This document shows positions 42,142-57,708 of a stretch of DNA of 64,000 bases, one piece after another. The DNA is from Candidatus Bathyarchaeota archaeon (GTDB taxonomy: Archaea; Thermoproteota; Bathyarchaeia; Bathyarchaeales; Bathycorpusculaceae). Every line of letters begins with the position of its first letter. Position 1 is the first letter of the stretch. Below the pieces are notes generated by a model. It did not search any database. It had not been told where the DNA came from and saw only the letters and a program-made list of their open reading frames with translations. Location: NCBI GenBank assembly GCA_963811105.1, contig CAWEPZ010000011.1:1024001-1088000 (forward strand). The letters are read 5' to 3'. A program made the position numbers and the translations under genes.

Positions 42142-42641
42142 ACCTGAAAATCGAAGGCGTGGCTATAAAATTCGGAAACAATGTTGACACAGATGTTATT
42201 TTGCCAGGAAAATACCTAATACTGATCGATCCTTACGAATTAGCAAAACATGCATTGGAAAGCTTAGACCCAACGTTCCCTGAAAAAGCAAAAAAAGGCG
42301 TCATTTTAGTCGGGGGCAAAAACTTTGGTTGCGGTTCAAGCAGAGAACAAGCTCCTTTAGCCTTAAAGTTTGCAGGTGTGAAATGCGTGTTAGCGGAATC
42401 TTTCGCAAGGATTTTCTTCCGAAACGCCATTAACATTGGCTTACCAGTAATTGAATGCAAAGGCATATCTAACGCCGTTGAAACAGGCGAAGAATTGGCG
42501 GTAGACTTTGAAGCTGGCAAGATAGAAAATGTTTCACGAGGCAAAAAGTTTCAAGTGGAGAAGCTTCCACCATTTATCTTAGAAATACTAGTTGAGGGCG
42601 GATTGATAGAAAATTTACGAAGGAGAATGAACAAAAAATGA
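42138..42641 (+). CDS. leuD: 3-isopropylmalate dehydratase small subunit
   Basis: VDTDVI, NFGCGSSREQA, SFARIFFRN. Confidence 0.92.
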   Translation: MNLKIEGVAIKFGNNVDTDVILPGKYLILIDPYELAKHALESLDPTFPEKAKKGVILVGGKNFGCGSSREQAPLALKFAGVKCVLAESFARIFFRNAINIGLPVIECKGISNAVETGEELAVDFEAGKIENVSRGKKFQVEKLPPFILEILVEGGLIENLRRRMNKK

Positions 42642-43675
42642 CTGAATACATAATTTCCCTGATTCCTGGCGACGGGATTGGCCCAGAATTAACAGAAGCC
42701 ACCTTGAAAGTTTTAGATGCCGTTAAGAAGAAGTTTGGCATTGAACTTAAAATTGTTGAAGCAGAAGCAGGAGACGCAACTTTAGCTAAAAGAGGTGCAG
42801 CCCTTCCTGCTGAAAGCGTAGAAATAATCAAGGGATCCCACGCTTGTCTAAAAGGACCAGTTGGCGAAACTGCAGCAGATGTCATCGTTAAACTCCGTTT
42901 GATGTTTGATTTGTATGCTAATCTCCGTCCTTTGAAAACTTATCCAAACGTTCCAGTTGCCAGGCCAGACATTGACATGATATTTGTTAGGGAAAACACC
43001 GAGGACGTTTACAAAGGATTGGAATTCGCCATAGGCAACGACACAACCATATGCCTAAGAATAATTACGAGAGGAAATTGTGAACGCATAGCCAAAAAAG
43101 CCTTCGAAATTGCACGCTTACGCAACGGCAAAAAGAAAGTAACTGCTATACACAAAGCGAACGTCATGAGAATAACGGACGGATTATTTGCCAGCGTATG
43201 CCGCGAAACAGCAAAGAGGTACCCAGACATCGCCTTTAACGAATTATATGTTGATGCTGCTTCAATGCGATTGATAAAAGAGCCGCAGGAATTTGATGTC
43301 TTCTGTACCTGCAACATGTTCGGCGACATTCTCTCAGATGAAGCCGCTCAGCTAATCGGCGGGTTAGGCATGGCTCCAGGCGCAAACATAGGTGACAACT
43401 TTGCTCTCTTTGAACCCATCCACGGTTCAGCACCAAACAGAGCAGGGAAACATACAGCAAACCCAATCTCCATGATACTATCTGCGAAAATGATGCTGGA
43501 GTGGATAGGCGAAAAATACAACGATAAAAAAAGCATACAAGCAGGCAAAGCAATAGAGAACGGAGTAATATACGCATTACGTAACGGTCAAACTGTTCCA
43601 GACTGCGGCGGCAACACTACGACCGTGGGAATGGCAGAAGCCATTGCTGCAGCCTTGACAGTGAAAACTGGTTGA
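42638..43675 (+). CDS. leuB: 3-isopropylmalate/isocitrate-family dehydrogenase
   Basis: PGDGIGPE, RENTE, NMFGDILSD, FEPIHGSAP. Confidence 0.9.
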   Translation: MTEYIISLIPGDGIGPELTEATLKVLDAVKKKFGIELKIVEAEAGDATLAKRGAALPAESVEIIKGSHACLKGPVGETAADVIVKLRLMFDLYANLRPLKTYPNVPVARPDIDMIFVRENTEDVYKGLEFAIGNDTTICLRIITRGNCERIAKKAFEIARLRNGKKKVTAIHKANVMRITDGLFASVCRETAKRYPDIAFNELYVDAASMRLIKEPQEFDVFCTCNMFGDILSDEAAQLIGGLGMAPGANIGDNFALFEPIHGSAPNRAGKHTANPISMILSAKMMLEWIGEKYNDKKSIQAGKAIENGVIYALRNGQTVPDCGGNTTTVGMAEAIAAALTVKTG

Positions 43676-43679
43676 AAAA

Positions 43680-45203
43680 ATGACAAATAAAACTTCAAAA
43701 CGTATCCGTATTTTTGACACAACATTAAGAGATGGGGAACAAACCCCCGGCGTATCTTTAACTGCAGATGACAAGATTGAGATTGCACGTCAACTGAGCA
43801 AACTAGGCGTTGACATTATTGAAGCCGGTTTTCCAAGTTCATCTGAAGGCGAGAAAAAAGTTGTCGCTCAAATAGCGAAAGACGGTTTGGAACCAGAAAT
43901 TTGTGCACTATCGCGTGCAACCAAAGGCGATATTGATGCCGCCGTTGCCTGCGACGTGGACTTAATCCACGTCTTCATTCCCACTTCGCCCGTACAAATG
44001 AAGTATGCTGTAAACTTAACTCCTGAACAAGTACTTGCCTCAACCATAGAATCTATTGAGCATGTGAAGAAGCACGGCATGAAATGCGAGTTTTCTCCTA
44101 TGGATGCCACACGCTCAGAAATGCCTTTCCTAAAACAAGTTTGCCAAGCAGCAGAAAAAGCAGGCATGGACACTTTAAACGTCCCAGATACTGTGGGAAT
44201 AATGACTCCAAAAACAACCATAAAGCTTATCGAGGAACTCAAAACGGTAGTTAAAGTTCCCGTTAGTACGCATTGTCATGATGACTTTGGTTTGGCGGTT
44301 GCAAACTCCTTAGCTGCTGTTGAAGCAGGCGCTGCCCAAGTGCATGTTGCCATTAACGGTTTAGGTGAGCGAGCAGGTAACGCGTCGCTGGAAGAAGTAG
44401 TTATGGCTTTACATGAGATTTACAATTATAAGACAAACGTAAACACACGGTTATTGTTCAGCACATCCAGAATGGTGGCTTCATTAACTGGCATAGCAGT
44501 GCAAGCGAACAAAGCAATTGTTGGCGAGAACGCGTTTGCCCATGAATCAGGTATTCACACTCGCGGAGTAACAGAGAAACCACTAACGTTTGAGCCGATA
44601 AACCCTGAGTTAGTGGGTCGTACAAGAAAATTAGTTGCTGGAAAACTGGCTGGATCCCGCGGCATAAGAGCTGAGCTAGAAGAGATAGATATTCACCCAA
44701 CTGAAGATCAACTTAAAGAAATTGTACAACGCGTCAAAGAACTCGGGGAAAAGGGCAAGATGATAACTGATGCGGATTTGCTGGCATTAACTTCTGCGGT
44801 TATGGGCGAAGTAATAGGCGAAGAAAAAATCGTTGACTTATGCGACTTGGCAGTTGTAACAGGCATCAAAGTTATCCCAACAGCATCAGTTAGGCTAACT
44901 TTGGACGGCAAAGAGCACATTGCCGCAGAAACGGGAGTTGGCCCAGTAGACGCAGTCTTAAAAGCCATCCAAAAACTAACCAATAACCTAGAAAATATTA
45001 GCCTCAGCGAGTACCGGCTTGAGGCCATCACTGGCGGCTCAAATGCAGTTGCAGAAGTCGTCATAAAAGTTCAAGATGAAAAAGGCAATATCGTTTCAGC
45101 TCGGGCAGCTAGAGAAGACATCGTTATGGCTAGCGTTGAAGCAATGATAAACGGTATAAACAAACTCTTGATAAAGAATCGTAAGCAGGGAAACAAAAAG
45201 TGA
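43680..45203 (+). CDS. leuA: 2-isopropylmalate (or citramalate) synthase
   Basis: DTTLRDGEQ, HCHDDFG, GERAGN, HESGIH, C-terminal regulatory domain GVGPVDA. Confidence 0.88.
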   Translation: MTNKTSKRIRIFDTTLRDGEQTPGVSLTADDKIEIARQLSKLGVDIIEAGFPSSSEGEKKVVAQIAKDGLEPEICALSRATKGDIDAAVACDVDLIHVFIPTSPVQMKYAVNLTPEQVLASTIESIEHVKKHGMKCEFSPMDATRSEMPFLKQVCQAAEKAGMDTLNVPDTVGIMTPKTTIKLIEELKTVVKVPVSTHCHDDFGLAVANSLAAVEAGAAQVHVAINGLGERAGNASLEEVVMALHEIYNYKTNVNTRLLFSTSRMVASLTGIAVQANKAIVGENAFAHESGIHTRGVTEKPLTFEPINPELVGRTRKLVAGKLAGSRGIRAELEEIDIHPTEDQLKEIVQRVKELGEKGKMITDADLLALTSAVMGEVIGEEKIVDLCDLAVVTGIKVIPTASVRLTLDGKEHIAAETGVGPVDAVLKAIQKLTNNLENISLSEYRLEAITGGSNAVAEVVIKVQDEKGNIVSARAAREDIVMASVEAMINGINKLLIKNRKQGNKK

Positions 45204-46012
45204 AAGTTGCCTTCCAAGGCGAACCAGGAGCATATAGCGAAAGTGCAGTCTTCCAAGTCTTCGGAGAAAATACACAGGTTAAACCATGCAAAGACTTCAA
45301 AGACGTTTTTGAAAACGTCTGCTCAGCGGAAACAAATTTTGGCGTTGTCCCAGTCGAGAACAGCTTAGAAGGCAGCATAAATCAAAACTACGACCTCTTT
45401 CTAAGATATGATTTGAAGGTTTTCGGAGAAGTCATTGTAAAAATCGAGCACTGCCTTATCACAAATCCCGGCACTGCTTTGTCCGACATCAAATTTGTTT
45501 ATTCTCATCCTCAAGCGCTGGCACAGTGCCGAAGCTTCTTGGAGGATTTCGGGCGCGAACTCATACCATCATATGACACAGCCGGAAGCGTCAAGTTGAT
45601 TAAAGAAAAAGGCTTAAAAAACGCTGCGGCGATTGCAAGTGAAAGAGCAGCCAACATATACAGCATGCATATCGTCGCCAAAGACATCGCAGACAACCCT
45701 GAGAACTACACGCGGTTCTTCATCCTTTCAACCGAGGATTCACCCGCATCCGGCAATGATAAAACCTCAATAATTTTCTCCGCAAAACATGAGCCAGGCT
45801 CACTTTATCATGCTATTGGGGAATTCGCTAAAAGAAACATCAACCTTACCAAAATCGAGTCGAGACCCACAAAGAAAACTGCATGGGAATACAATTTCTA
45901 CCTTGACTTTGAAGGACACCGAACCGAACCCATACGTGCAGAAGCCTTGAAAGCTTTGGAGAAATATTCAATTTTTATCAAAATCTTAGGTTCATACCCT
46001 AAAGGCGTTTAA
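45200..46012 (+). CDS. pheA: Prephenate dehydratase
   Basis: PVENSLEG, SHPQALAQC, TRF, ACT domain LTKIESRP. Confidence 0.95.
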   Translation: MKVAFQGEPGAYSESAVFQVFGENTQVKPCKDFKDVFENVCSAETNFGVVPVENSLEGSINQNYDLFLRYDLKVFGEVIVKIEHCLITNPGTALSDIKFVYSHPQALAQCRSFLEDFGRELIPSYDTAGSVKLIKEKGLKNAAAIASERAANIYSMHIVAKDIADNPENYTRFFILSTEDSPASGNDKTSIIFSAKHEPGSLYHAIGEFAKRNINLTKIESRPTKKTAWEYNFYLDFEGHRTEPIRAEALKALEKYSIFIKILGSYPKGV

Positions 46013-46454: not shown

Positions 46455-47327
46455 TTACTCTGCAGATTCAAGCATCTTATACATGACATCATAGGACTTC
46501 GCGAAGTCTGTATCAGTCTCTTTTAGCTTTGCCTTCAACTGTTCCATCCGCTCAACGATTGCTTTTGCGTCTTTCTTTCTAATCAGACCCAACCATTCTT
46601 GCGCTTTTGCCATAAACTGGTCTTCGATTTTGCTCAGATCAGGCAAATCTGTTTGCAAACTTGCGTAGAGGTCCGGCGTTTCCAAAGCTGTTGCTTCCGC
46701 CAGAGTGAATAGCATTCGGTAGGTTATGCCTGCCACCTTCTTGGTTTCGGGCAAATTCTTCTGTTCCAAAAGTGTCTCACACGCAACTAAACCAAGAAAA
46801 TGTGGCAAACCGAGAACAACCGACATTAATTCATCATGTTTTTTCGGCGACATAACAAATACGTGAGCTTCCTCTTTCTCCAGCACTTTCTTAAATTCTT
46901 GAGCAAACTTTTCTTCTGCAGCATTTGTTGGGGTTAGGATGTAAGCCTTATGCTTAACGCCGTTGCTTCCTGGCCCAAAAACGGGGTGCGTACCCAGCGC
47001 CAAAGCTTCTTTAATGTTTTCATGCATGAGTTTGACAGGGGTTTCTTTAATTGAGCAGATATCCATTACGATTTGTCCTTTGTGAAGTACTGGAGCAATG
47101 GTTTTGACTACTTCTTCAAAGGCTGTGATAGATACACAGATTAGTACTTGGTCAACGCCAATTACTGCTTCTCTGAAATCAGTGGTTGTATTGATCTGCA
47201 ATTGCTTTTTGAGGTTAGCTATTTTTTCTTTTTTTCTATCAGCCAAAGTAACGGAGTAACCTTTTGAATGATAAAATTTAGCGAACCAAACACCCATTTT
47301 ACCTGCGCCAATTACGGCGATTTTCAT
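46455..47327 (-). CDS. tyrA: Prephenate dehydrogenase
   Basis: GAGKMG, DICSIK, HPVFGP, HDELMS..LGLPH. Confidence 0.93.
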   Translation of the reverse strand: MKIAVIGAGKMGVWFAKFYHSKGYSVTLADRKKEKIANLKKQLQINTTTDFREAVIGVDQVLICVSITAFEEVVKTIAPVLHKGQIVMDICSIKETPVKLMHENIKEALALGTHPVFGPGSNGVKHKAYILTPTNAAEEKFAQEFKKVLEKEEAHVFVMSPKKHDELMSVVLGLPHFLGLVACETLLEQKNLPETKKVAGITYRMLFTLAEATALETPDLYASLQTDLPDLSKIEDQFMAKAQEWLGLIRKKDAKAIVERMEQLKAKLKETDTDFAKSYDVMYKMLESAE

Positions 47328-48403
47328 TTAAGCCCCTCGCTTATTATCTCAAGAGCAGTTTTGATTTCGTTTCTTGGCGCAGTTAACGAAATGCGGAAAT
47401 GTTCTTTGTAATCTCCAAATGCAGTGCCTGGAGCTACTGCTACACCTTTGTCAAGTAAGTCTAAGGTGAATTTTTCCGAGTTTAAACCTGGGCGCTTTGG
47501 AAAAACGTAGAATGGTGCTTCAGGCTTTGTGAAGAAGAAACCTGCTTTTGCCAAAGTTTTGCTTGCCATTTTTGCTCGTTCCTCGTATTCTTCTTTTATG
47601 TTTGTGGCAAGCTGTTTTTGCAGTTCTAGTGCTTTTAATGCTGCTTCTTGAATAAAAACGGGGACGTTGTTGATGGTGATTTGGTTGAGTTTAGTAATGT
47701 TGTCAACAAATCGTTTATTTGCTATTATGTAGCCTATTCTCCATCCAGTCATGCTAAATGTTTTGGAGAACCCTGTTGTGAGAATATGTGTTTGGTCACG
47801 GTCGTATTCCAAGATGCTTTTGGTTTTAACGAAGCTAATTGTTCCGTATACTTCATCTGAGAGGATGGTAACGCTTTTTTTGTTGGCTATTTCTACGATG
47901 CCTTCAAGAGTTTCAGCATCCATAACTTTGCTTGTAGGATTGTTTGGGTTGTTAAGTATTATCATTCGGGTGTCTTTGTCAATCATGCCTTCAAGCTTGT
48001 TCAAGTCGATTTTCCAGCCGTCTTCCATCTCTGTCCGCAGCAGTTTAGTCTTTGCTCCGAGGCTTTTAGCGATTAAATCGTAAGCTGTCCAGTAAGGTGT
48101 AGGGATGATAACGTTTCCTCCACCCTTCATTATAAGATACATGGTTGCGAAAACGCCCCATTTTGAACCAGGCGTAATTACAACGTTTTCAGTGTTAACC
48201 CCATGAAGTTCAGCAAGTTTTTGCCGAAGTTCGCTCTCGCCATAAGAAGAGGAATACTTTGTTTTTCCGGCCTTCATTGAGGCGTAAGCTGCTTCAATTA
48301 TCTCGTTAGGTGTAGCTAAGTCAGGGTCACCTAGGTTCAAGCGTATTATCTTCTTTCCTTCGCTTTCTAGCCTTATGGCTTTCTCATTTATTTCGTAGAG
48401 CAT
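47324..48403 (-). CDS. Class I/II PLP aminotransferase (aromatic/aspartate)
   Basis: NNPNNPT, SDEVY, FSKTFSMTGWRIG. Confidence 0.92.
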   Translation of the reverse strand: MLYEINEKAIRLESEGKKIIRLNLGDPDLATPNEIIEAAYASMKAGKTKYSSSYGESELRQKLAELHGVNTENVVITPGSKWGVFATMYLIMKGGGNVIIPTPYWTAYDLIAKSLGAKTKLLRTEMEDGWKIDLNKLEGMIDKDTRMIILNNPNNPTSKVMDAETLEGIVEIANKKSVTILSDEVYGTISFVKTKSILEYDRDQTHILTTGFSKTFSMTGWRIGYIIANKRFVDNITKLNQITINNVPVFIQEAALKALELQKQLATNIKEEYEERAKMASKTLAKAGFFFTKPEAPFYVFPKRPGLNSEKFTLDLLDKGVAVAPGTAFGDYKEHFRISLTAPRNEIKTALEIISEGLK

Positions 48404-48431
48404 TACTGTTAACTCCCGTTAAGAGTTCTTT

Positions 48432-48692
48432 TTACTGTTGAACAGCACTGCACATATTAACTATTTCGCGGTAAACCGCTTCAATTTGCAGGGGATCAAG
48501 ATTAAATTCAACAGCTTTTTGCTTGACATGCTTATAGAGCTGATTTTCTCTGGAAGTATCTCTTACCTGCATTCCTTGTTTTTTCTTAACTTTTCCAATA
48601 GCCCTGCAGATTTTTGCTCGCTCGTTTAGAGCATTGAGGATTTGCTCGTCAATTTCATCTACTTGTTTTCGAAGTTGTTGGATTTCATTCAT
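48432..48692 (-). CDS. Chorismate mutase (AroQ)
   Basis: LRKQVDEID...NER...K...RD..RE. Confidence 0.92.
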   Translation of the reverse strand: MNEIQQLRKQVDEIDEQILNALNERAKICRAIGKVKKKQGMQVRDTSRENQLYKHVKQKAVEFNLDPLQIEAVYREIVNMCSAVQQ

Positions 48693-49801
48693 TATTTTTG
48701 TCTCTCCAAAACTTTCGGTATTAAGCCAGCCCGAATCATTTGGTCAGCTAAGATTATGGCAACCGCGGATTCTATAGCTGGCACAGCTTTTGGAACCACA
48801 CAGGGGTCATGTCTACCCTTGACGGTGAGGCGCGCATCTTTCATTGCAGTTAGGTTAACGGTCTTCTGTTCTTTGCCGATGGAAGGTGTCGGTTTAATTG
48901 CCACTCTCATCAAGATAGGCATGCCATTGGATAACCCACCTAAAATTCCACCCATATTATGTGTGGACGTTGCAACTACCCCGCCCTCCATAACGTAGGG
49001 GTCGTTGGTTTCTGAGCCTTTGAGCTCTGAAATTCTGAAGCCCAAACCGAACTCAACCCCTTTGACCGCGGGAACATTAAACAATGCCTTCGCTAAATCC
49101 GCATCAAGAGAATCAAACAGTGGTTCACCAACACCTACTGGAACATTCAGCACTATACATTCTACTATTCCGCCAAGACTCTCGCCTTCTTTGCGGGCAT
49201 TAACTATAGCCTCTTCCATTCTTTCTGCACAAGCCAAGTCTGGACACCTCGTAGACGCTACATATCTGTTCCTGCGAATTTCTTCTGCACTGAACTTTTT
49301 GTCACTTTTAACTTTGCCAATTGATGTGCTGTAAGCTAACACATCAACATCGAATCTGCCCAGTAGTTTTTTGGCTACTGCTCCAGCCATGATAAGTGCA
49401 ACGGTGACTCTGCCTGAAAAGCGTCCGCCACCACGATAATCTCGAAAGCCCCCATACTTCACATGAGCAGGATAGTCAGAGTGCCCAGGCCTTGGCAGAT
49501 CCTTGATGGCTTCGTAATCATTTGAGTCAACTTCCTTATTTTCAACCATCAACGCTATTGGAGCACCAGTTGTAAACCCATTGAAAACCCCCGATAATAT
49601 CTTTATAACGTCTTTTTCGATTCTTCCAGAAACAATTTTTGGCTCTGCTGGAATGCGCCTGTCCAAGTCCATTTGAATATCTGCTTCTGTAAGAGGCAAG
49701 CCTGCTGGGCAACCGTCCACCACTACGCCAACGACTTTGCCGTGGCTTTCACCGAAACTGGTTACTGTGAACTCTTTACCTATCGAATTTCCCGCCAACA
49801 A
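48692..49801 (-). CDS. aroC: Chorismate synthase
   Basis: GESHG, RPGHSD, RGGGRFSGR, GRHDPC. Confidence 0.96.
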   Translation of the reverse strand: MLAGNSIGKEFTVTSFGESHGKVVGVVVDGCPAGLPLTEADIQMDLDRRIPAEPKIVSGRIEKDVIKILSGVFNGFTTGAPIALMVENKEVDSNDYEAIKDLPRPGHSDYPAHVKYGGFRDYRGGGRFSGRVTVALIMAGAVAKKLLGRFDVDVLAYSTSIGKVKSDKKFSAEEIRRNRYVASTRCPDLACAERMEEAIVNARKEGESLGGIVECIVLNVPVGVGEPLFDSLDADLAKALFNVPAVKGVEFGLGFRISELKGSETNDPYVMEGGVVATSTHNMGGILGGLSNGMPILMRVAIKPTPSIGKEQKTVNLTAMKDARLTVKGRHDPCVVPKAVPAIESAVAIILADQMIRAGLIPKVLERQK

Positions 49802-51080
49802 TTTCAGCTCCTAATTGTTTTAGATGAGTAAAGAACTGCGGATAAGACTTTCGAACGCACTGCGCATTGTGAATTGTTGTTTGGCTTTCTGCCCGTAATG
49901 CTGCAACTGTGCAAGCCATCGCAATACGGTGGTCATTATGAGGGTCAATAACAGCACCATGAAGTGGAGATAGACCTTCGACAGTAAGACTACTAGAATC
50001 CACAGTTAATTGAGCGCCCATCTTTCCAAGTTCAGCATGAAGCGCTGCTAACCTATCTGACTCTTTGAGTCTGAGCCTTTGCGCTCCAGTAATGTGAGAG
50101 GTGCCTTTGGCATAACAAGCAAGCGTAGTGCAAATTGGGACAAGATCGGGAATATTCTTAGCATCAATATTAACGGCCTCTAGTGGGCTGCCAGATCCAG
50201 CTATTTCAACACTGTCCGAACATACTTTTCCATCAACGCCCATTTGCTTGAGGATTCCCACAATTGCTCTGTCGCCTTGAACGCTATTGTAAACAAGATT
50301 GCTTACTCTAACATTCGAGTTGGTTATGGCCGCTGCAGCTAGAAGAAAAGCAGCTGAAGAGAAATCACCAGGCACTTTGTCATCAATGGGCATGTATGTT
50401 TGGTTGGCTGGGATAAATATTCGTTCGTAGTTTCCATGAATTTCTATGCTTATCCCGTGGTTGAAAAGGACATTTTGCGTCATTCTAACGTAATCTACCG
50501 ACTCAAGCGGCGATGTCACAAGGATTTCGGTGTCCACTTTTGCCATTGGGCAAGCAAACATTAACCCTGAAATAAACTGAGAACTGACGTTGCCGGGAAT
50601 AGAGGTTTCACCTCCAAGAATCCCACCGCCCTGAACGAAGACGGCGTCTTTGTTTCCTATTTTTTTAACGTAAGCTCTAGCACCCAGGTCATCGAGGCTT
50701 TTAAGCAGCGGTTCGATGGGACGGCGTTCAAGAGAACCACCAAAAATCAACAGTGAAGGATCCGGTGTAAGGGCGGCTATGGGTATCATTAAGCGAAACG
50801 TAGTTCCAGATTCGCCGCAGTCAACAGGCTCTTTTGCGTTTTCAAGCGGATTTGCACCAGTAACTGTCCAGCAGCCTTCCGACGAATGCACTTTTGCACC
50901 CAAAGCCGTAACTGCGCGCAACGTTGCTTTTGTATCGTCGGAAAGCAGGGGATTAGAAACCTTTGCAGCCCCATTTGAAAGAGCAGCGGCTATGAGCATT
51001 CGCTGCGTATAAGACTTGGAAGCTGGCGCACAAACCTCGCCACTTAGTTTTTCAGTTTTCTTAACAATAACATCTACCAT
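49776..51080 (-). CDS. aroA: EPSP synthase
   Basis: SKSYTQR, GESGTT, SSQF, RLKESDR, DHRIAM, KSYP. Confidence 0.96.
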   Translation of the reverse strand: MVDVIVKKTEKLSGEVCAPASKSYTQRMLIAAALSNGAAKVSNPLLSDDTKATLRAVTALGAKVHSSEGCWTVTGANPLENAKEPVDCGESGTTFRLMIPIAALTPDPSLLIFGGSLERRPIEPLLKSLDDLGARAYVKKIGNKDAVFVQGGGILGGETSIPGNVSSQFISGLMFACPMAKVDTEILVTSPLESVDYVRMTQNVLFNHGISIEIHGNYERIFIPANQTYMPIDDKVPGDFSSAAFLLAAAAITNSNVRVSNLVYNSVQGDRAIVGILKQMGVDGKVCSDSVEIAGSGSPLEAVNIDAKNIPDLVPICTTLACYAKGTSHITGAQRLRLKESDRLAALHAELGKMGAQLTVDSSSLTVEGLSPLHGAVIDPHNDHRIAMACTVAALRAESQTTIHNAQCVRKSYPQFFTHLKQLGAEIVGGKFDR

Positions 51081-51082
51081 TA

Positions 51083-51955
51083 CTACAGCACCCTAGCTTT
51101 CTCACGGTTCAAATTTGCCATTAAGATTTCACCGCCAAACTTTTGCAAAGCCGCCCTCACTGAATCAACCTTATCTTCTGGCACAACTGCTGTTACTGCT
51201 GGTCCTTTGCCGCAGAGCCCAGCTGCCACCGCGCCCGAAGCCAATGCATCAATTGCAATTGAACTGTCATATCCTTGGGCGGAAGAATAAATTAACCCGT
51301 TAATTGTCAATGCCTCCCATATCTTGCCCTCCAAAGCCTTCTCATACGCCACTTCGACAAGCGGCTTAACCGTTTGCAGCCTGCCCACGTTAGAGTCTGC
51401 CGTATACGCCTTCTTGGAGGGCACATGAAAAAGAACCGCTAAATTTCCAGTTACCAGCAACTGCTTGACAATTTCTCGCTTCTGATTGTCAGTGATGACT
51501 ACACCGCCAAAATATGAAGCACAAGCATCATCAAAAGCACCCGTCACTGTAACCTTCGCATCAAAAGCAGCATCGACACTCAACTTAACAAGTTCTAAAT
51601 CATCAAGAGTCTTCCCTAATGCTGCAGTGGCTGCTAACGCTACTGCATTTGCGGCCGCACTGCTACTTTTAAGCCCTCTAGCAATAGGAATGTTAGAGCA
51701 AGTTCTTATTTTTGCCCCAAAACGGTTTTCCAAACCAAACCGCCGAAGAACCCTCGCTACGGTTTTTTCTATTAAGAGGGTGCTTTCGTTTGGGTCATCG
51801 GTTATTTCTGATTTGAAAACACAGGGTTCATCTGTTATCTCGACCTCAGCTTTAGTCCACAAGTCTACCCCAAAAGCCGCGCCCTTGCCAAGTGCAATTG
51901 CGTTAACGATTGTTGCGGCGCCATGAGCTATAGCTGTAGCTTTCCCAATCAACAT
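51083..51955 (-). CDS. aroK: Archaeal (GHMP-type) shikimate kinase
   Basis: GAATIVNAIA, PIARGLKSSSA, TGAFDDA. Confidence 0.93.
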   Translation of the reverse strand: MLIGKATAIAHGAATIVNAIALGKGAAFGVDLWTKAEVEITDEPCVFKSEITDDPNESTLLIEKTVARVLRRFGLENRFGAKIRTCSNIPIARGLKSSSAAANAVALAATAALGKTLDDLELVKLSVDAAFDAKVTVTGAFDDACASYFGGVVITDNQKREIVKQLLVTGNLAVLFHVPSKKAYTADSNVGRLQTVKPLVEVAYEKALEGKIWEALTINGLIYSSAQGYDSSIAIDALASGAVAAGLCGKGPAVTAVVPEDKVDSVRAALQKFGGEILMANLNREKARVL

Positions 51956-52812
51956 CTACACCTTTGCAAGTGGTTAAGCGCTGCCTTCCTCATAACTTCA
52001 ACTGGTGCCTTGCAGCTTGTCCAGATCTCAAAAGAAGCGGCCCCTTGGTAAATGAGCATTTCAACCCCGCTTACGACTTTGGCTCTGGCAGCTTTAGCAT
52101 CCTTCGCCAGTGTGGTTTCGATTGGATTGTACACTATATCCATTACTGCCAAGTCATGTTTGAGCCACTCTGGCTGTACTGAGGTTTGGTTGGCGTTTGG
52201 TTTCATTCCAACTGATGTGGCGTTAATAAGCACATCAGCGCCAACAAGGTAAGCTTTGATTGTGTTAGGCGAAAGTGTGCCTGCTGTGATTTTCTTTTTG
52301 AACGTTTGCTTCAGGAGATTCGATAGTTCCTCAGCTGGCTGTGGTGTTCGATTCAAAATCGCCAATTCACCCGCCTGCGATGCAAGAGTGTACGCTATAG
52401 CTCGTGCGGCTCCGCCTGCTCCAAGCAATAGGACCTTTTTCCCTTTCGGATCAATACGGTTCGCTTTGAGCGCATTTAGAGCGCCGATTCCGTCGGTGTT
52501 AAAGCCTAGAAGTTTGCCATTTTTGTTTTGAATAGTGTTAACTGCATTAAGGAATTTTGCCGTTGGGTCTATTTCATCTAAGTACTTGATAACTGCTTCT
52601 TTGTGTGGCATAGTAACATTTAACCCATGAATATTCATGACACGAATTCCATCCAGGGCGCCTGCAATACCGTCAGGCTTAACCTTGAACGCTAAAAAAA
52701 CGCAATCCAGTTTCAAAGCCTCAAACGCTGCATTATAGATAACTGGGCTCAGGGTGTGTTCTATGGGGTCGCCGATTACGCCGAAAACGCGGGTTTTTCC
52801 TGAAATAACCAT
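51949..52812 (-). CDS. aroE: Shikimate dehydrogenase
   Basis: NVTMPHK, NTDG, GAGGAA, NATSVG, GVEMLIYQG. Confidence 0.95.
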   Translation of the reverse strand: MVISGKTRVFGVIGDPIEHTLSPVIYNAAFEALKLDCVFLAFKVKPDGIAGALDGIRVMNIHGLNVTMPHKEAVIKYLDEIDPTAKFLNAVNTIQNKNGKLLGFNTDGIGALNALKANRIDPKGKKVLLLGAGGAARAIAYTLASQAGELAILNRTPQPAEELSNLLKQTFKKKITAGTLSPNTIKAYLVGADVLINATSVGMKPNANQTSVQPEWLKHDLAVMDIVYNPIETTLAKDAKAARAKVVSGVEMLIYQGAASFEIWTSCKAPVEVMRKAALNHLQRCRC

Positions 52813-53495
52813 TATTTTTGCCCCAAAACGTCATAGGCAGCCTGCATTTGCTCAATTGTAATTTGCCCAGCCGCTGTTTCGCTGCCCTGTCCAAGCGAAG
52901 CAAATGTGAAGTACGCACCAAACAGTGGCGACAGCAACCTAGATACCTTGCCTTGTTCGCCCATACAGAAACACACAAGTTTCACTCTACCGGATTTAGC
53001 TGAAACAAAGTTCAGCGCCCCTAGATTGTCTTCTATTTTCTTTGCGGTTGTTACTATTTTGCAGACACTGGCGCCGCTTAAAATTTCCTGTTCCAAAATT
53101 CTTCCCATTTCAGGAATGCTAAGTGCGCTGTCGTGTTTGTGGAAGGAAACGATTGTTTTAGCGCCCAGCTGCTTGAGTTTATAAATTACTTTTTTATGGT
53201 CAGGGCTTGACAAGTCGATATCAACATATTGAAAGCCGTTTTTGGCGGCAGACAGCAAGGTTTGTTGGCGTTCAGCTTCAGTTCCAGCGAAAAAGCCCTT
53301 TTCACTTTGCAGCTTGTTTGTTGCGATAAGCGGGATTGTTGTGCATTTAGAGAATTCTGAGAGGTTTCCATTGGTTTGAAGACAGTCCAATCTAACTTCG
53401 ATGAAATCAGCTTTGGTGCTCTTTGCCCTCTCAATGAGGTTTAACGCTTCTGTGTTGTTTTCAGGGAGAATCGAGACGCAGATTCTTGGGGTCAC
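52812..53495 (-). CDS. aroD: Type I 3-dehydroquinate dehydratase
   Basis: EVRLD, IVSFH, KIV, CMGEQGKVSR, AAGQ. Confidence 0.92.
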   Translation of the reverse strand: MTPRICVSILPENNTEALNLIERAKSTKADFIEVRLDCLQTNGNLSEFSKCTTIPLIATNKLQSEKGFFAGTEAERQQTLLSAAKNGFQYVDIDLSSPDHKKVIYKLKQLGAKTIVSFHKHDSALSIPEMGRILEQEILSGASVCKIVTTAKKIEDNLGALNFVSAKSGRVKLVCFCMGEQGKVSRLLSPLFGAYFTFASLGQGSETAAGQITIEQMQAAYDVLGQK

Positions 53496-54535
53496 TTTTC
53501 AATCACCGTTTCTTCAGGCACAGAAACGCCGAAGTGCCGCCCTCCTTTCGCAGATAAATGAACCAAAACCTCATCGCCTGGTTTCAGCTCAGTTACAGGT
53601 TTTGAAGCCTTAGGAGTTACTAAACGTACGGTTTCGGCGTTTTGTAGGATGGTTTTGATTTTTGTATCGTCGGCTTGTGCCTCAATGAGCATTAGGGGAC
53701 GGAACTCAATTTTTGAGCGCCCCAGGTTTGTTATTCTGACTTTTCCTTCCCTGTTGATGATTAGGACTTCGTCGCCTGCTCTTAGCTCAGAGAGGTATCG
53801 TGTGTTCTGAAGGGAAGTTAATGTGTAGTGGGAGGCTGGTCCAGCGTTAACTCGAAAAGGTCTAGATTGGACATAGGGGTTTTCGTTTACTTCTGCTTCA
53901 ACAAGAAAGAAACCGGCGGATTGGCAGCCGACTAGCATTCCTTCGCCTGGAACCATCAAATCAACGGTGTCAACGCAAACTCTGGCTCCAGTTCCAATAG
54001 GTTTGATAGATAAGATTTTGGCGGTTGTTAAGGGGATTTTTGGCATTTGCTGCTTAACCAGTTTGATGGTTTTCGTAAACTCATTAGGATTGGATGTTTT
54101 CACCAGAACGCCGTCGGTTCCCAACTCTAAGGCTTCGAGAACTATTTTGGCGTCCTCCGCAGTGGTGACTTCGGCTATTAGTTTGCTTTTGCCGCCATGC
54201 GCCTTGGCTATTAAATTTTCGAGGGGAATTACTCGCCAATCAAGAGTGTTTATAATTATATAGTCAACTTGGAGTTCGGCTGCTTTGGCAGCTTGGTTTT
54301 CGTCTTCTTTACCTTTAATGGTTATTTTGATGGCTATTCTTTTGCCTTCGCTTTTCAGTTGGGCAAGCTTTTTCTCGTTTAAGTCAGCGAGGAAATTTAT
54401 GTTGAGTTTGCCTGAGCGGTTACTTATTTGTGTGCCGTCTATGATTGCGTCTGCATTTTCATGGGCAAGGCTAAGCAAGCTTTCTTTTTCTTGATTTGAA
54501 GCTGCTTGGTCAATTTCTATCCAAAGTTCCTTCAA
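53492..54535 (-). CDS. aroB': 3-dehydroquinate synthase II (archaeal AroB')
   Basis: WRVIPLEN, RVCVD, RPFRVNAG, RHFG. Confidence 0.93.
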   Translation of the reverse strand: MKELWIEIDQAASNQEKESLLSLAHENADAIIDGTQISNRSGKLNINFLADLNEKKLAQLKSEGKRIAIKITIKGKEDENQAAKAAELQVDYIIINTLDWRVIPLENLIAKAHGGKSKLIAEVTTAEDAKIVLEALELGTDGVLVKTSNPNEFTKTIKLVKQQMPKIPLTTAKILSIKPIGTGARVCVDTVDLMVPGEGMLVGCQSAGFFLVEAEVNENPYVQSRPFRVNAGPASHYTLTSLQNTRYLSELRAGDEVLIINREGKVRITNLGRSKIEFRPLMLIEAQADDTKIKTILQNAETVRLVTPKASKPVTELKPGDEVLVHLSAKGGRHFGVSVPEETVIEK

Positions 54536-55323
54536 CTTTTTTCACCGAGGATTTTAAGAGCCTGCTCTACGCCGACATTTTTGTGAACTATTGCTAAAAG
54601 CGCCTTAACCATCAGAGCGGGTTTGTCATGTTGAAACACATTTCGCCCAATTGAGACTCCTGCTGCTCCGGCTTTTAGCGCGTCATGGGTGGTTTGGAGA
54701 ACTTCTTGAGATGTTTTGCATTTAGGTCCCCCCGCAATCACTACTGGTACGGGGCAGCTTTCGATTACTGATTTGAAGGTATCAATGTTGCCTGTGAAGT
54801 TTGCTTTAATGATGTCTGCGCCAAGTTCAGCACCAATGCGGGCTGCATGCGCTACCACGTCGGCGGCATGTTCGTTTTGGATTTTTGGCCCGCGAGGATA
54901 CATCATTGCAAGCAACGGCATACCAAATAAGTCGCATTCTTCAGCTACCTTCCCCAAGTTGCTCAGCATTTTGTCCTCATCCTGCGCTCCAACGTTTACG
55001 TGTACGGAGACTGCATCGGCACCTAAGCGTACGGCTTCTTGGACACTACAGATTTGGACTTTGCTGTTTATTTTTGGGCTAAGGTTAGACATGCCTGACA
55101 ACATAACGATTAAACCTGTGCCATTAGCATCAACCTGTTTGGCTATGCCTTTGTGGACAAGTATGGCATCAGCTCCGCCTTCAAGAAGCTGATTGATGGT
55201 TTGCTGCATGTTAACTATGCCTTGGATTGGGCCAATTGTTACGCCGTGATCCATAGGCACTATTACTGTACGGTTGTCTTGCTGCATGATTCTTTTTATT
55301 CGCCTTGCTTTACCTTGATTCAT
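54532..55323 (-). CDS. aroA': 2-amino-3,7-dideoxy-D-threo-hept-6-ulosonate synthase (AroA', class I aldolase)
   Basis: PMDHG, MMYPRG, ELGADIIK, GRNVFQ; adjacent to DHQ synthase II. Confidence 0.92.
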   Translation of the reverse strand: MNQGKARRIKRIMQQDNRTVIVPMDHGVTIGPIQGIVNMQQTINQLLEGGADAILVHKGIAKQVDANGTGLIVMLSGMSNLSPKINSKVQICSVQEAVRLGADAVSVHVNVGAQDEDKMLSNLGKVAEECDLFGMPLLAMMYPRGPKIQNEHAADVVAHAARIGAELGADIIKANFTGNIDTFKSVIESCPVPVVIAGGPKCKTSQEVLQTTHDALKAGAAGVSIGRNVFQHDKPALMVKALLAIVHKNVGVEQALKILGEKS

Positions 55324-55338
55324 ATTTTGTCACCTTGG

Positions 55339-56586
55339 TTATTTTGCGCTCCTTAAAGAGTTTCTAATTAACTTTAAAGCTTTTTCACGCTCATTCCAAT
55401 CCAAAAACAGCAAAATACTTGACGTGATAGTCAGTATGCCTGAGATGTTAATGCCACTGACTCGGAGGTCTTCACTAATTTTTCCGATGATACCGTGGGT
55501 TTCTTCCAAGCCGACACCGCTGGTTTTTATGTATACTAAGTCCTTTTTGATCGCCATCGCAATAGTTTCTTTGTTTCTCTTCGTTATGTCGTGAATGTCA
55601 TTGAAAAGGGCATCCAAGTTTTTCTCCTGAGAAACGTAAAGTATCAACGAGTTTGCACTCATTGACATGCCAAGCAGAAGGGAGTGATGTTTGGTTTTTT
55701 CAACCATTTCTTGGATGATTTGCGGGTTAGCGGATATGCCGCAGCCGATTACTGTTATTTCAGCAACCGGGAAAGGATGGGCGATTTCTGCGTCTAGTTC
55801 GGTTGTAAGGGCGCCTGTGATTATTGTGCCTTCACTTGCTAGGTTGCCGTGTGCGTGGTTGATTACTTTTATGTTGATGTTTTTAGGTTTATACTTCAGC
55901 GCTTTGCTGTGGATAAATTTGGCTCCTGAATCAGCCAAACCTACAAGAGTGTTAACATCAATTTCTCTGAGACGCTCCGGATTGGAAACGATTTTAGGAT
56001 CCCCTGACATTACCCCATCAGCATTAGTAACTAAAACAATCTCATCAGCGCCCAAAGCTTCAGCTAAAACAAACGCAGTCGTATCACTTCCGCCTCGTCC
56101 TAGAGTTGTAATTTTGCCATCCTTAGTTTTACCCAAAAAACCCGCAACGACCGGAATAATACCTTTATTCATAATTGGCAATACACATTCACGAATGTTC
56201 TTTTCGCAGTCTTTCAGGATTGGATTTGCATTTTGAAAAGCTGAATCTGTAATTATTGGCCAGGTGCTGTCAATTGGGTCAAAGTAACAAGATTCGGCAC
56301 CGTTGGTTTTCAGTGCAGCTGCAAATATTCGAATACTAGTTCGTTCGCCCATCGAGAGGATATCGTCCAGGTCTTTTTTCTCGAGTTTGCCGTTTGAGGC
56401 GTTTTTTGCTGTTGTCATGAGGACATCAGTTGTTTTTCCCATAGCCGAAACTACAACGGCGATTCGAGTGCCTTTTTTGGCTTCGTTTATCACGGCGGTT
56501 ACCGCTTTTAAGAGCCTTTCGTGGTCTGCTAGACTGGAACCACCGAATTTAACCACAATTTTTTTCATAGAGTTCTCTTTTGCCAT
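55339..56586 (-). CDS. lysC: Aspartate kinase
   Basis: VVKFGGSS, VVSAMG, GER, TTLGRGGSD, C-terminal ACT-like domains. Confidence 0.93.
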   Translation of the reverse strand: MAKENSMKKIVVKFGGSSLADHERLLKAVTAVINEAKKGTRIAVVVSAMGKTTDVLMTTAKNASNGKLEKKDLDDILSMGERTSIRIFAAALKTNGAESCYFDPIDSTWPIITDSAFQNANPILKDCEKNIRECVLPIMNKGIIPVVAGFLGKTKDGKITTLGRGGSDTTAFVLAEALGADEIVLVTNADGVMSGDPKIVSNPERLREIDVNTLVGLADSGAKFIHSKALKYKPKNINIKVINHAHGNLASEGTIITGALTTELDAEIAHPFPVAEITVIGCGISANPQIIQEMVEKTKHHSLLLGMSMSANSLILYVSQEKNLDALFNDIHDITKRNKETIAMAIKKDLVYIKTSGVGLEETHGIIGKISEDLRVSGINISGILTITSSILLFLDWNEREKALKLIRNSLRSAK

Positions 56587-56605
56587 CTTTTTACGCCCCT
56601 GCCTT

Positions 56606-56643
56606 GCCCAGAACTCTACTCAAAAAATTTGACAGTTCTGGGC
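56606..56643 (-). promoter_or_regulatory. Hairpin between leader uORF and aspartokinase start (putative attenuator)
   Basis: mRNA GCCCAGAACU / AGUUCUGGGC perfect 10-bp stem starting at the first base after the leader stop; encloses a U6 run. Confidence 0.75.
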
Positions 56644-56730
56644 TTAAGGAAAATAACGATAATAAAAGCCGAAGTCGAAGCTCTGGAACCATGATACATT
56701 GTTTTCTTTTTTGCTTTGCAAATTAGACAT
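56644..56730 (-). CDS. Putative aromatic amino acid operon leader peptide MSNLQSKKENNVSWFQSFDFGFYYRYFP
   Basis: 28 codons; 1 Trp, 5 Phe and 3 Tyr in the last 15; lies between the promoter and the first gene of the aro/tyr operon. Confidence 0.8.
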   Translation of the reverse strand: MSNLQSKKENNVSWFQSFDFGFYYRYFP

Positions 56731-56770
56731 TGCAGCTTCGAACCTTGCTCAATCAGACATTAACGAGAAA

Positions 56771-56785
56771 ATATAAGCGTTTCGG
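56771..56785 (-). promoter_or_regulatory. BRE-TATA promoter of the aromatic operon
   Basis: Minus strand CCGAAACGC-TTATAT about 40 nt upstream of the leader ATG. Confidence 0.6.
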
Positions 56786-56877
56786 AAATAGACTAAGATT
56801 TAGCCACTAAATGTCAGCTCTGAGGGTATAGTGTTTATCAATTTGGCTGTGCATAACAACCAACGGAAGGCATCCAG

Positions 56878-57708
56878 TTGAAAGTGCAAATAGATTGGCA
56901 CCAAATCCTCATTGAATGCAAAATTAACGTGAAAGCAAGCATCAAGCCCTTCCTTAAAACCATCAAGGACCCCCAACCTAACCTAGGAGTAGGCGCAGGC
57001 GGAGATGCCATGAAACCAATGGATTTAGCGGCTGAAACAGCAATCCTTGACACATTAAAAAGCCATGATGTTTCTTTTACCTTAATCAGCGAAGAATCAG
57101 GAGTAAAAAAATTCGGCGAAGCGGCAGAGGAATGTATTGTTACCTTGGACCCGATTGATGGCAGCACCAATTTCATGCATGGACTACCCTTCTACTGTTG
57201 CTCTATTGCAGTTTCCCGACATCCTATGCTTGCCGATGCGTACGCAGGCATGGTTGCTGACTTAGTTCATGGCGCAACATACACGGCGATTAAAGGCAAG
57301 GGCGCCTATCGAGATGACGAAAAGATAAAACCCTCCACCACCGCTGATTTGCAAGATGCAGTAATAGGTCTAGACTTGAACACTTACAAAGTTAAAGAAG
57401 TTGTACCCAAACTAACCTCGCTTATAGCTGAAACCAAGCATATCCGCCATTTTGGCGCTAACGCACTTGAACTGTGCTATGTTGCTGATGGGTCAACAGA
57501 TGCGTTTGTGGATATCCGTGGGAAACTTCGCACAACCGATGTTGCAGCTGCTTTCCTGATTCTTAAAGAGGCAGGCGGAATCATGACTACCCCGAATAAT
57601 CACGTTTTAAACGTTGAATTAAACCCAAAACAAACGTTAAGCTTTGTAGCCTCAGGGAACATGCAAATTCACCAAAAAATTTTGACTTTGGTTAAATCCT
57701 TATGTTAA
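56878..57708 (+). CDS. Inositol monophosphatase / FBPase IV family
   Basis: SEE, LDPIDGSTN, DVAAA..I..EAGG. Confidence 0.9.
   Translation: MKVQIDWHQILIECKINVKASIKPFLKTIKDPQPNLGVGAGGDAMKPMDLAAETAILDTLKSHDVSFTLISEESGVKKFGEAAEECIVTLDPIDGSTNFMHGLPFYCCSIAVSRHPMLADAYAGMVADLVHGATYTAIKGKGAYRDDEKIKPSTTADLQDAVIGLDLNTYKVKEVVPKLTSLIAETKHIRHFGANALELCYVADGSTDAFVDIRGKLRTTDVAAAFLILKEAGGIMTTPNNHVLNVELNPKQTLSFVASGNMQIHQKILTLVKSLC

Follow-up and report, generated by a model that had tools for sequence, protein, structure and literature searches.

The 64,000-nucleotide (nt) window analyzed in this study, positions 1,024,001 to 1,088,000 of contig CAWEPZ010000011.1, comes from a Candidatus Bathyarchaeota archaeon (assembly GCA_963811105.1) described as a soil archaeon. 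It carries an 11-gene aromatic amino acid operon that begins with the aspartate kinase gene ask and ends with tyrA. Ahead of ask lies a 28-codon upstream open reading frame (uORF) that ends in a run of aromatic codons and is followed at the next base by a hairpin. This uORF is probably translated as a leader peptide, through which the ask-aro-tyrA operon would sense how much charged Tyr- and Phe-tRNA is available. The comparative evidence supports a sensor of this kind well and makes it very likely, while the output step proposed here, translational unmasking of the ask Shine-Dalgarno (SD) sequence, has at best an even chance of being the right one on the folding models. Conservation extends to the uORF, to its codon bias and SD, and to the arrangement of stop codon, hairpin, and ask SD. 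The element is a good candidate for the first archaeal case of a leader peptide that gauges amino acid supply through the ribosome, built from a Tyr/Phe uORF and a stop-hairpin-SD switch. It would be old enough for Bathyarchaeia to share it with four or more other lineages of family rank in the phylum.

Codon bias within one genome is not decisive, and the case rests on conservation. The comparison covered 124 upstream regions of orthologous ask genes from 21 family codes of the phylum (families are cited by f-numbers, individual regions by L-numbers), and the sensor was scored as a short open reading frame (sORF) with at least 6 Phe, Tyr, or Trp codons among its final 14. Such an sORF was found in 99/124 regions (91/110 and 8/14), including four families outside the class. 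An earlier sequence-only reading, which saw in the window a candidate for ribosome-mediated attenuation, had set the orthologous upstream regions as its check beforehand, and the outcome bears it out: uORF and hairpin are conserved before archaeal aro operons far beyond the genus. Within the genus, an ATG-initiated uORF of 24-29 codons occupied the same place in 35/35 regions. These leaders have a variable, polar N-terminus and a conserved tail, S-F-(D/E/G)-Y-x-F-Y-Y, with the stop codon 0-7 nt before the hairpin. Among the other genera of the order (46 regions), the sORF was found in 6 regions, in 37/40 (the other 3 have 5 aromatic codons), and in 2/3. It was also present in six families belonging to other orders of the class (26 regions; f14, f19, f27, f30, f32, and f34), with tails such as ...YYYYYYYCFF, ...FFDFFYYYFYFE, and ...FGYFYFYYFK. 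Other classes of the phylum (14 regions) contributed f47, f58, f62, and f66, where the tails include ...FGYFYFYYFGP, ...FYGFYFYFYFGP, and MAYFFFSY.

The aromatic counts exceed those expected from nucleotide composition. The mean over 108 regions was 7.06 aromatic codons, compared with 2.55 in dinucleotide shuffles, and in 79/108 regions at most 1 of 200 shuffles attained the observed count. The 17 weak regions in this test were mostly those of f26, f35, and f39. Among 1409 control upstream regions of the same genome, 4 contained 8 or more aromatic codons among the final 14, the window leader being one of those 4, and 10 reached 7. The pattern of the hairpin after the stop codon, P2, occurs a single time in the 3.49-Mb genome.

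The start codon is ATG in 86/91 leaders, and 68/89 have an SD-like motif between -15 and -4 relative to the uORF start; in control windows lying farther upstream, the frequency of the motif is 0.10. Leader lengths change by whole codons (3-nt in-frame indels), and the remaining two frames are open over the uORF span in just 26/89 (29%) and 12/89 (13%) of leaders. Peptide sequence, codons, and GC content vary between clades, with aromatic identity retained. Both synonymous codons are used for each residue (TTT 177, TTC 156, TAT 251, and TAC 108 in the 91 leaders), and GC-rich clades retain Phe and Tyr through other codons. The final aromatic codon stands 1-3 codons ahead of the stop in 91/91 leaders. 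Peptide length ranges from 8 to 45 residues with differing motifs, and no conserved arrest peptide sequence of the TnaC or SecM type was found across clades, composition alone being common to them.

Over the last 14 codons of the 91 leaders, Tyr, Phe, and Trp account for 28.3, 26.3, and 1.4% (18/1268 for Trp), respectively, and any Trp at all occurs in only 17/91 leaders. Because Trp is this rare, the leader appears to read Tyr and Phe and not three aromatic amino acids, which fits an operon ending in chorismate mutase, aminotransferase, and tyrA. The products of the operon are chorismate and Tyr, and Tyr is the most frequent leader residue. The idea that one leader senses all three end products, put forward in the sequence-only reading, is therefore given up; the trp operon lies elsewhere in the genome, on another contig, and has no Trp-rich leader. 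This trpEGDCBA operon (C2:283775-289642) is directly preceded by an ORF of ~108 codons (C2:283420-283743, plus strand), which we take to be CutA-like.

All leader elements were found on the minus strand at the places assigned to them by the sequence-only reading (coordinates are window positions throughout), and sequence and Pfam agree with its account of the promoter, uORF, hairpin, and operon. The promoter element, a B recognition element with TATA box (BRE/TATA) of sequence CCGAAACGCTTATAT at 56771..56785, starts 55 nt upstream of the uORF ATG and is near-invariant in an alignment of 30 genus leaders. It is followed by the SD-like AAGG of the uORF (56743..56746), whose GG is invariant in the same alignment. 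The uORF itself, read from its ATG at 56644..56730, comprises 28 codons and TAA and encodes MSNLQSKKENNVSWFQSFDFGFYYRYFP; Trp, Phe, and Tyr make up 9 of its final 15 codons, translated as W F.. F. F. F Y Y. Y F P (56647..56691). Hairpin P2 (56606..56643) begins at the base after the uORF stop. Its 10-bp lower stem pairs GCCCAGAACT (RNA form GCCCAGAACU, 56643-56634) with AGTTCTGGGC (RNA form AGUUCUGGGC, 56615-56606) and encloses an inner UCAAA/UUUGA pairing, with a T6 run in the loop region at 56627-56622. The SD of ask, which sequence and genus alignment identify as GGGG (GGGTG in most relatives), lies at 56596..56599.

The ask gene (55339..56586, ATG at 56586; Pfam AA_kinase, E 3.4e-46) is the first of 11 co-oriented genes, all confirmed by Pfam, that run from 56586 down to 46455. 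The 10 further genes (46455..55323) abut or overlap and encode a DeoC-type aldolase (aroA'), DHQS-II (aroB'), aroD (DHquinase_I), aroE (shikimate dehydrogenase), a GHMP-type shikimate kinase, aroA (EPSP synthase), aroC (chorismate synthase), a CM_2 chorismate mutase, an aminotransferase, and tyrA (prephenate dehydrogenase). Of the ATGs that follow the SD, the first is the conserved ask start, and the second, at ~56568, is not. The ask N-terminus ahead of the conserved K-I-V-V-K-F-G-G is variable, and 9 nt of it are absent in 8/30 genus members (56565-56586; alignment columns 219-236). A scan of 56300-57000 against Rfam 15 gave best matches of E 0.45-3.5 to unrelated families, far under the gathering scores.

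In 92/95 leaders, the hairpin starts between -3 and +8 nt relative to the first stop-codon base. Its mean z score against mononucleotide shuffles is -3.0, with 75/95 leaders below -2. In the genus, the P2 stem is almost invariant (RNAalifold: 10 pairs, 1 compensatory change, several G.U), and between clades its sequence is replaced outright. The window genus and f7 share GCCCAG...CUGGGC, and further clade stems are GGAGAAAUCAAGAC/GUUUUGAUUUCUCC, GAGAAACCG/CGGUUUCUC, GGAAGAGC/GCUCUUCC, GCUUCGAgGCC/GGuUUCGAAGC, and GGGGACCG/CGGUCCUC. Hairpins of the GCCCAG group show three to five canonical pair types at positions 9-11, as counted by a script in which ~10 of 41 distinct arm pairs were mis-anchored. 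RNAalifold returned no structure on 57 GCCCAG-type hairpins, whose arms MAFFT had placed out of register. The ask SD follows the stem at 0-9 nt across leaders and at 6-9 nt in the genus. What is kept throughout is the architecture: the leader's own SD, the aromatic run to shortly before the stop, the stop hairpin, and the ask SD. An extension of the P2 stem by CCUU/AAGG, which the sequence-only reading allowed for, can form in the window but is not conserved in the genus as written.

A further helix, P1, is suggestive on the folding evidence. RNAalifold pairs the uORF 5' untranslated region (UUCGAAGC, just before the ATG, 56735..56742) with GCUUCGA in the Ser-Phe-Asp codons (56675..56681) over 5 bp, with 0 compensatory changes in the genus. 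The start region of the uORF pairs with codons farther along it in the minimum free energy (MFE) structure of 33/36 genus leaders and, with other sequences, in those of other clades (f27 3/3, f14 2/2, and f7 12/13). The fold energies of P1 are not unusual (mean z -0.4 in the genus). A three-segment switch, in which the 3' arm of P2 would pair with AGAACUCUA near the second ask ATG, was rejected because this stretch is deleted or different in relatives.

From this arrangement we infer that the uORF is translated, that ribosomes stall in it, that stalling switches the ask SD, and that the effect spreads down the operon. A ribosome would load at the uORF's own SD and ATG and, when charged Tyr- or Phe-tRNA is scarce, would dwell on the aromatic run that reaches 1-3 codons before the stop. 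The stop hairpin would act as a clamp that brings the pyrimidine-rich last codons (UUU-CCU-UAA) beside the purine-rich ask SD. In ribosome-free RNA, these codons would pair with the SD and damp ask initiation, while a ribosome ~3-6 codons before the stop would hide them with the hairpin intact, leaving the SD free and the operon up. A ribosome that reaches the stop and leaves would allow the closed form to re-fold. Downstream genes would follow through their overlaps (translational coupling) and through transcriptional polarity. P1, which joins the uORF start region to the first aromatic codons, may confine leader translation to stalling.

The switch was modeled by folding leaders with the ribosome represented as a 28-nt block (A-site -15..+12), a footprint of assumed bacterial size, under equilibrium 37 °C parameters. 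Left out of the folding statistics were L147, L167, L055, and L071 (doubtful sORF choice or no hairpin), L045 (5'-truncated), L080 (has N), L063 (too little 5' sequence for the P1 test), and L069, L039, and L050 (no SD by pattern). In free RNA, the likeliest partner of the ask SD was the last 4 uORF codons plus stop, with a pairing probability of 0.38 in the genus, 0.36 in f7, 0.50 in f11, and 0.36-0.56 in most other clades. The MFE structure of the window pairs AGGGG with UUCCU (the last Phe-Pro codons) and the ask AUG region with Tyr codons, the hairpin between them forming the clamp. A terminal Pro codon, whose CC faces the GG of the SD, occurs in 19/35 genus leaders and in 5/5 of f58/f62.

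The modeled probability that the ask SD is unpaired in the window was 0.23 in free RNA, 0.76 with a ribosome at the stop, and 0.61 with the A-site 4 codons before the stop. The corresponding values were 0.25, 0.22, and 0.52 in f7, 0.32, 0.37, and 0.73 in f11, 0.43, 0.23, and 0.80 in f14, 0.22, 0.15, and 0.63 in f30, 0.20, 0.21, and 0.49 in f27, and 0.09, 0.22, and 0.79 in L171 (f58), respectively. Opening of the SD by a stalled ribosome is predicted in silico for the window, f7, f11, f14, f30, f19, f27, and L171. In clades with a CU-rich 3' arm, a ribosome at the stop is predicted to release this arm to capture the SD. The resulting states would be closed, open, and closed again, the direction that feedback would call for.

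Several results weigh against the sensor or against unmasking of the SD as its output. As single-genome evidence, the uORF is not exceptional, ranking ~38th among the 5564 small ORFs of the genome in an amino-acid bias scan. The same genome has no Trp-rich leader before its trp operon, as noted above, and no His leader before its his operon. In f26, f35, and f39, the upstream regions carry a different conserved sORF, of the LFGDGVY or YIFGDYIYGE type, with only 2-5 aromatic codons, which may be a diverged or a different leader. These sORFs (L140-L155) take the forms M-G-D-x-LFGDGVY..., ...GGYIFGDYIYGE..., and MGGHLYWHKPAPETLIQV and lie 80-300 nt from the kinase core. No such leader was found in the ask upstream regions read from f52. 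The folding depends on the assumed footprint and parameters, and with these the switch is weak in the genus and its near relatives (SD unpaired 0.35 free, 0.40 at stop, and 0.48 at -4; n=41) and absent in L177, L178, L180, and L184. An earlier SD-occlusion test on 41 leaders with a wider span (19 nt) gave no difference (0.45, 0.53, and 0.55). Pairing of the SD with the uORF end was 0.42 in native sequences and 0.49 after shuffling of the last 27 nt, with the native value higher in 36/90. Since native pairing is no better than shuffled, it may be a by-product of U-rich Phe and Tyr codons. The extended fold of the window has a z score of -1.19, and 27/200 shuffles fold equally well. Occlusion of the SD, which the sequence-only reading had offered as one output, has partial support: in the window a ribosome is predicted to raise the unpaired probability well above that of free RNA, but the effect is weak genus-wide and the pairing no stronger than in shuffles. 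Control of ask translation alone does not in itself regulate the ten downstream genes.

The hairpin could instead be a premature terminator, with its U run after the stem (other clades) or in the loop (window), which would make the element a transcription attenuator. A ribosome stalled on the last aromatic codons would then cover the foot of the 5' arm, and quick release would let the hairpin fold and terminate transcription, intrinsically or through aCPSF1/FttA at the U tract. We regard this as unlikely, although parts of it agree with the data. A U3-6 tract followed by the SD does stand after the stem in f11, f14, part of f7, and the f1 genera g25, g29, g30, and g37, and with aromatic codons up to 1-3 before the stop in every leader, a +12 nt footprint would reach the stem. 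In the window and its genus, however, the stem is followed by AAGGCA or AAAGCA and no U tract, as the sequence-only reading had correctly stated for the window, and f30, f34, and part of f27 have none either. The looped U run that it had named as a possible site of termination is present in the window, and a loop T run of at least 4 occurs in 31/35 genus leaders, but the run is lost in 4/35 and mostly forms an upper A:U stem. At the 178 convergent 3' ends of the genome, hairpins are lacking (mean z -0.32) and T runs are not clearly in excess (T5+ 0.38 vs A5+ 0.31). A conserved, mutually exclusive antiterminator was not found by RNAalifold, which gives P1 and P2 only, or by footprint folding. 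A stall at the first hungry codon, ~10 codons upstream, would leave the hairpin free and give the wrong sign, and the SD sits tight against the stem, a placement that a terminator does not need.

Two accounts that dispense with sensing of tRNA charge are less probable than termination. The ORF could be incidental to T/A-rich sequence, with control exerted by a protein or a plain RNA or DNA element, such as a repressor that binds the inverted repeat TTCGAAGC...GCTTCGA or a protein that recognizes the RNA hairpin. Lrp/TrpY-type proteins are the usual regulators of amino acid operons in Archaea, and AGCTTCG (30/30 leaders) and TTCGAAGC are invariant nucleotides in the genus, third codon positions included, where covariation is also scant (1 compensatory pair). 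What makes this account improbable is that TTCGAAGC is not enriched as a regulon motif in the genome (23 found vs ~27 expected) and that these motifs are not retained outside the genus, whereas ORF, ATG, SD, and aromatic bias are. Different codons keep Phe and Tyr in GC-rich clades, and the frame survives indels. Marginally less probable still is a peptide that is itself active, either as an arrest peptide sensing free Tyr or Phe in the ribosome tunnel (TnaC-like) or as a small functional protein co-expressed with the pathway. The recurring genus motif S-F-D/E-Y-x-F-Y-Y, the C-terminal Pro-stop of the genus and f58/f62 leaders counted above, and the conserved LFGDGVY-type sORF of f26/f35 would suit such a peptide. 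Across clades, however, only composition is conserved, with the length and motif differences already given; pairing of CC with the SD explains the terminal Pro equally well, and it is the nucleotide sequence of the invariant SFD codons that is constrained. A leader that reports Tyr- and Phe-tRNA charging remains the preferred reading.

The gene upstream of the leader (56878-57708, plus strand), of the inositol monophosphatase/FBPase family, is divergent from it, and 56587-56877 is therefore a promoter region, which this gene may share with the aro operon. The pheA gene (45200-46012, plus strand; PDT and ACT domains) is the last gene of a leucine-type operon at 42638-46012. It overlaps the end of a LeuA-like synthase gene (43680-45203), itself located after an isopropylmalate dehydrogenase-like gene (42638-43675). 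The Phe branch is hence attached to a branched-chain operon rather than to the aro operon. Two other candidates on C11 were rejected. A Thr-run leader at C11:598839, found in the genome-wide scan for biased leaders, is antisense to a 374-aa ORF. The second, a T-rich sORF before an unannotated 611-aa ORF (C11:1209555-1209700, minus strand), has an aromatic frame without ATG. This stretch was the top control match for aromatic sORFs; its aromatic frame reads ...DVFYFSAYFYFRFSF-stop and its ATG frame MSFISRHIFIFDFLSDVA.

Orthologues of the aro-type ask were identified at E<=1e-100 in 161/301 genomes of the order, and the gene flags uncultured Bathyarchaeia that make their own aromatic amino acids. 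Two public contigs (L105 and L117) that carry this archaeal kinase at 84-89% identity are labelled Candidatus Acidoferrum sp. and Candidatus Limnocylindrales bacterium and are probably mis-binned Bathyarchaeia. One complete genome of the family (L170, G070:C11:23403-27476) has DHQS-II and the aldolase and lacks the aro-type ask; in this single case, the aro operon starts with the aldolase, and no obvious aromatic leader was seen ahead of it. Four other complete genomes without the kinase are also without DHQS-II and may be aromatic auxotrophs.

Attenuation by leader peptides is textbook knowledge for Bacteria, and the element described here is a candidate for it in a new domain of life. If the reading is true, the use of hungry codons to link translation with gene control would not be solely a bacterial invention, and archaeal ribosomes would serve as metabolite sensors. 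The leader would also provide a concrete system in which to test polarity and the coupling of transcription with translation in Archaea, as well as a compact, portable Tyr/Phe-responsive switch. According to a paper from 2021 (PMC8448881), neither transcription attenuation nor antitermination is known in Archaea. A ribosome-profiling paper on Haloferax reports uORFs, in its accessible parts without such a sensor role. A full-text literature search with incomplete journal coverage found no archaeal leader-peptide sensor of amino acids.

The bacterial trp, phe, his, leu, and thr leaders are the classical ribosome-mediated transcription attenuators (general principle in PMC1183508). Like them, the archaeal element has, in the 5' leader of its biosynthetic operon, a short ORF equipped with separate start signals. 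It further shares with them a run of end-product codons and a hairpin directly after the leader stop. It differs in its archaeal host, in the hairpin adjoining the SD of the first gene, and in its mixture of Tyr and Phe codons. With no U tract after the stem in the window and no antiterminator found, it fails here two defining features of bacterial attenuators. TrpY/Lrp-family DNA-binding regulators control archaeal aromatic and Trp genes; their target pathway is the same, but they act at promoter recruitment. In the erm and cat leaders, which act by antibiotic-inducible translational attenuation, and in the tnaC arrest peptide system, a ribosome pausing on the leader ORF alters the structure of the RNA downstream or keeps a termination factor from acting. 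The terminal Pro-stop is a feature of tnaC also seen here, but erm, cat, and tnaC need a specific peptide and a small molecule, and the archaeal leader conserves only its content of aromatic codons. Mycobacteria have Cys-responsive polycysteine sORFs, in which, according to the available portion of Canestrari et al. (10.1101/834739), stalled ribosomes block structures that sequester the next ribosome-binding site. As far as that source goes, these ORFs are bacterial, leaderless, and Cys-sensing, whereas the archaeal uORF is SD-led and rich in Tyr and Phe, and sequestration in the archaeal leader is weak and compositional in the folding tests. The mycobacterial system (10.1101/834739) is the closest mechanistic relative of the archaeal element: both have a short upstream ORF with a run of codons for particular amino acids, and the logic proposed here is the same.

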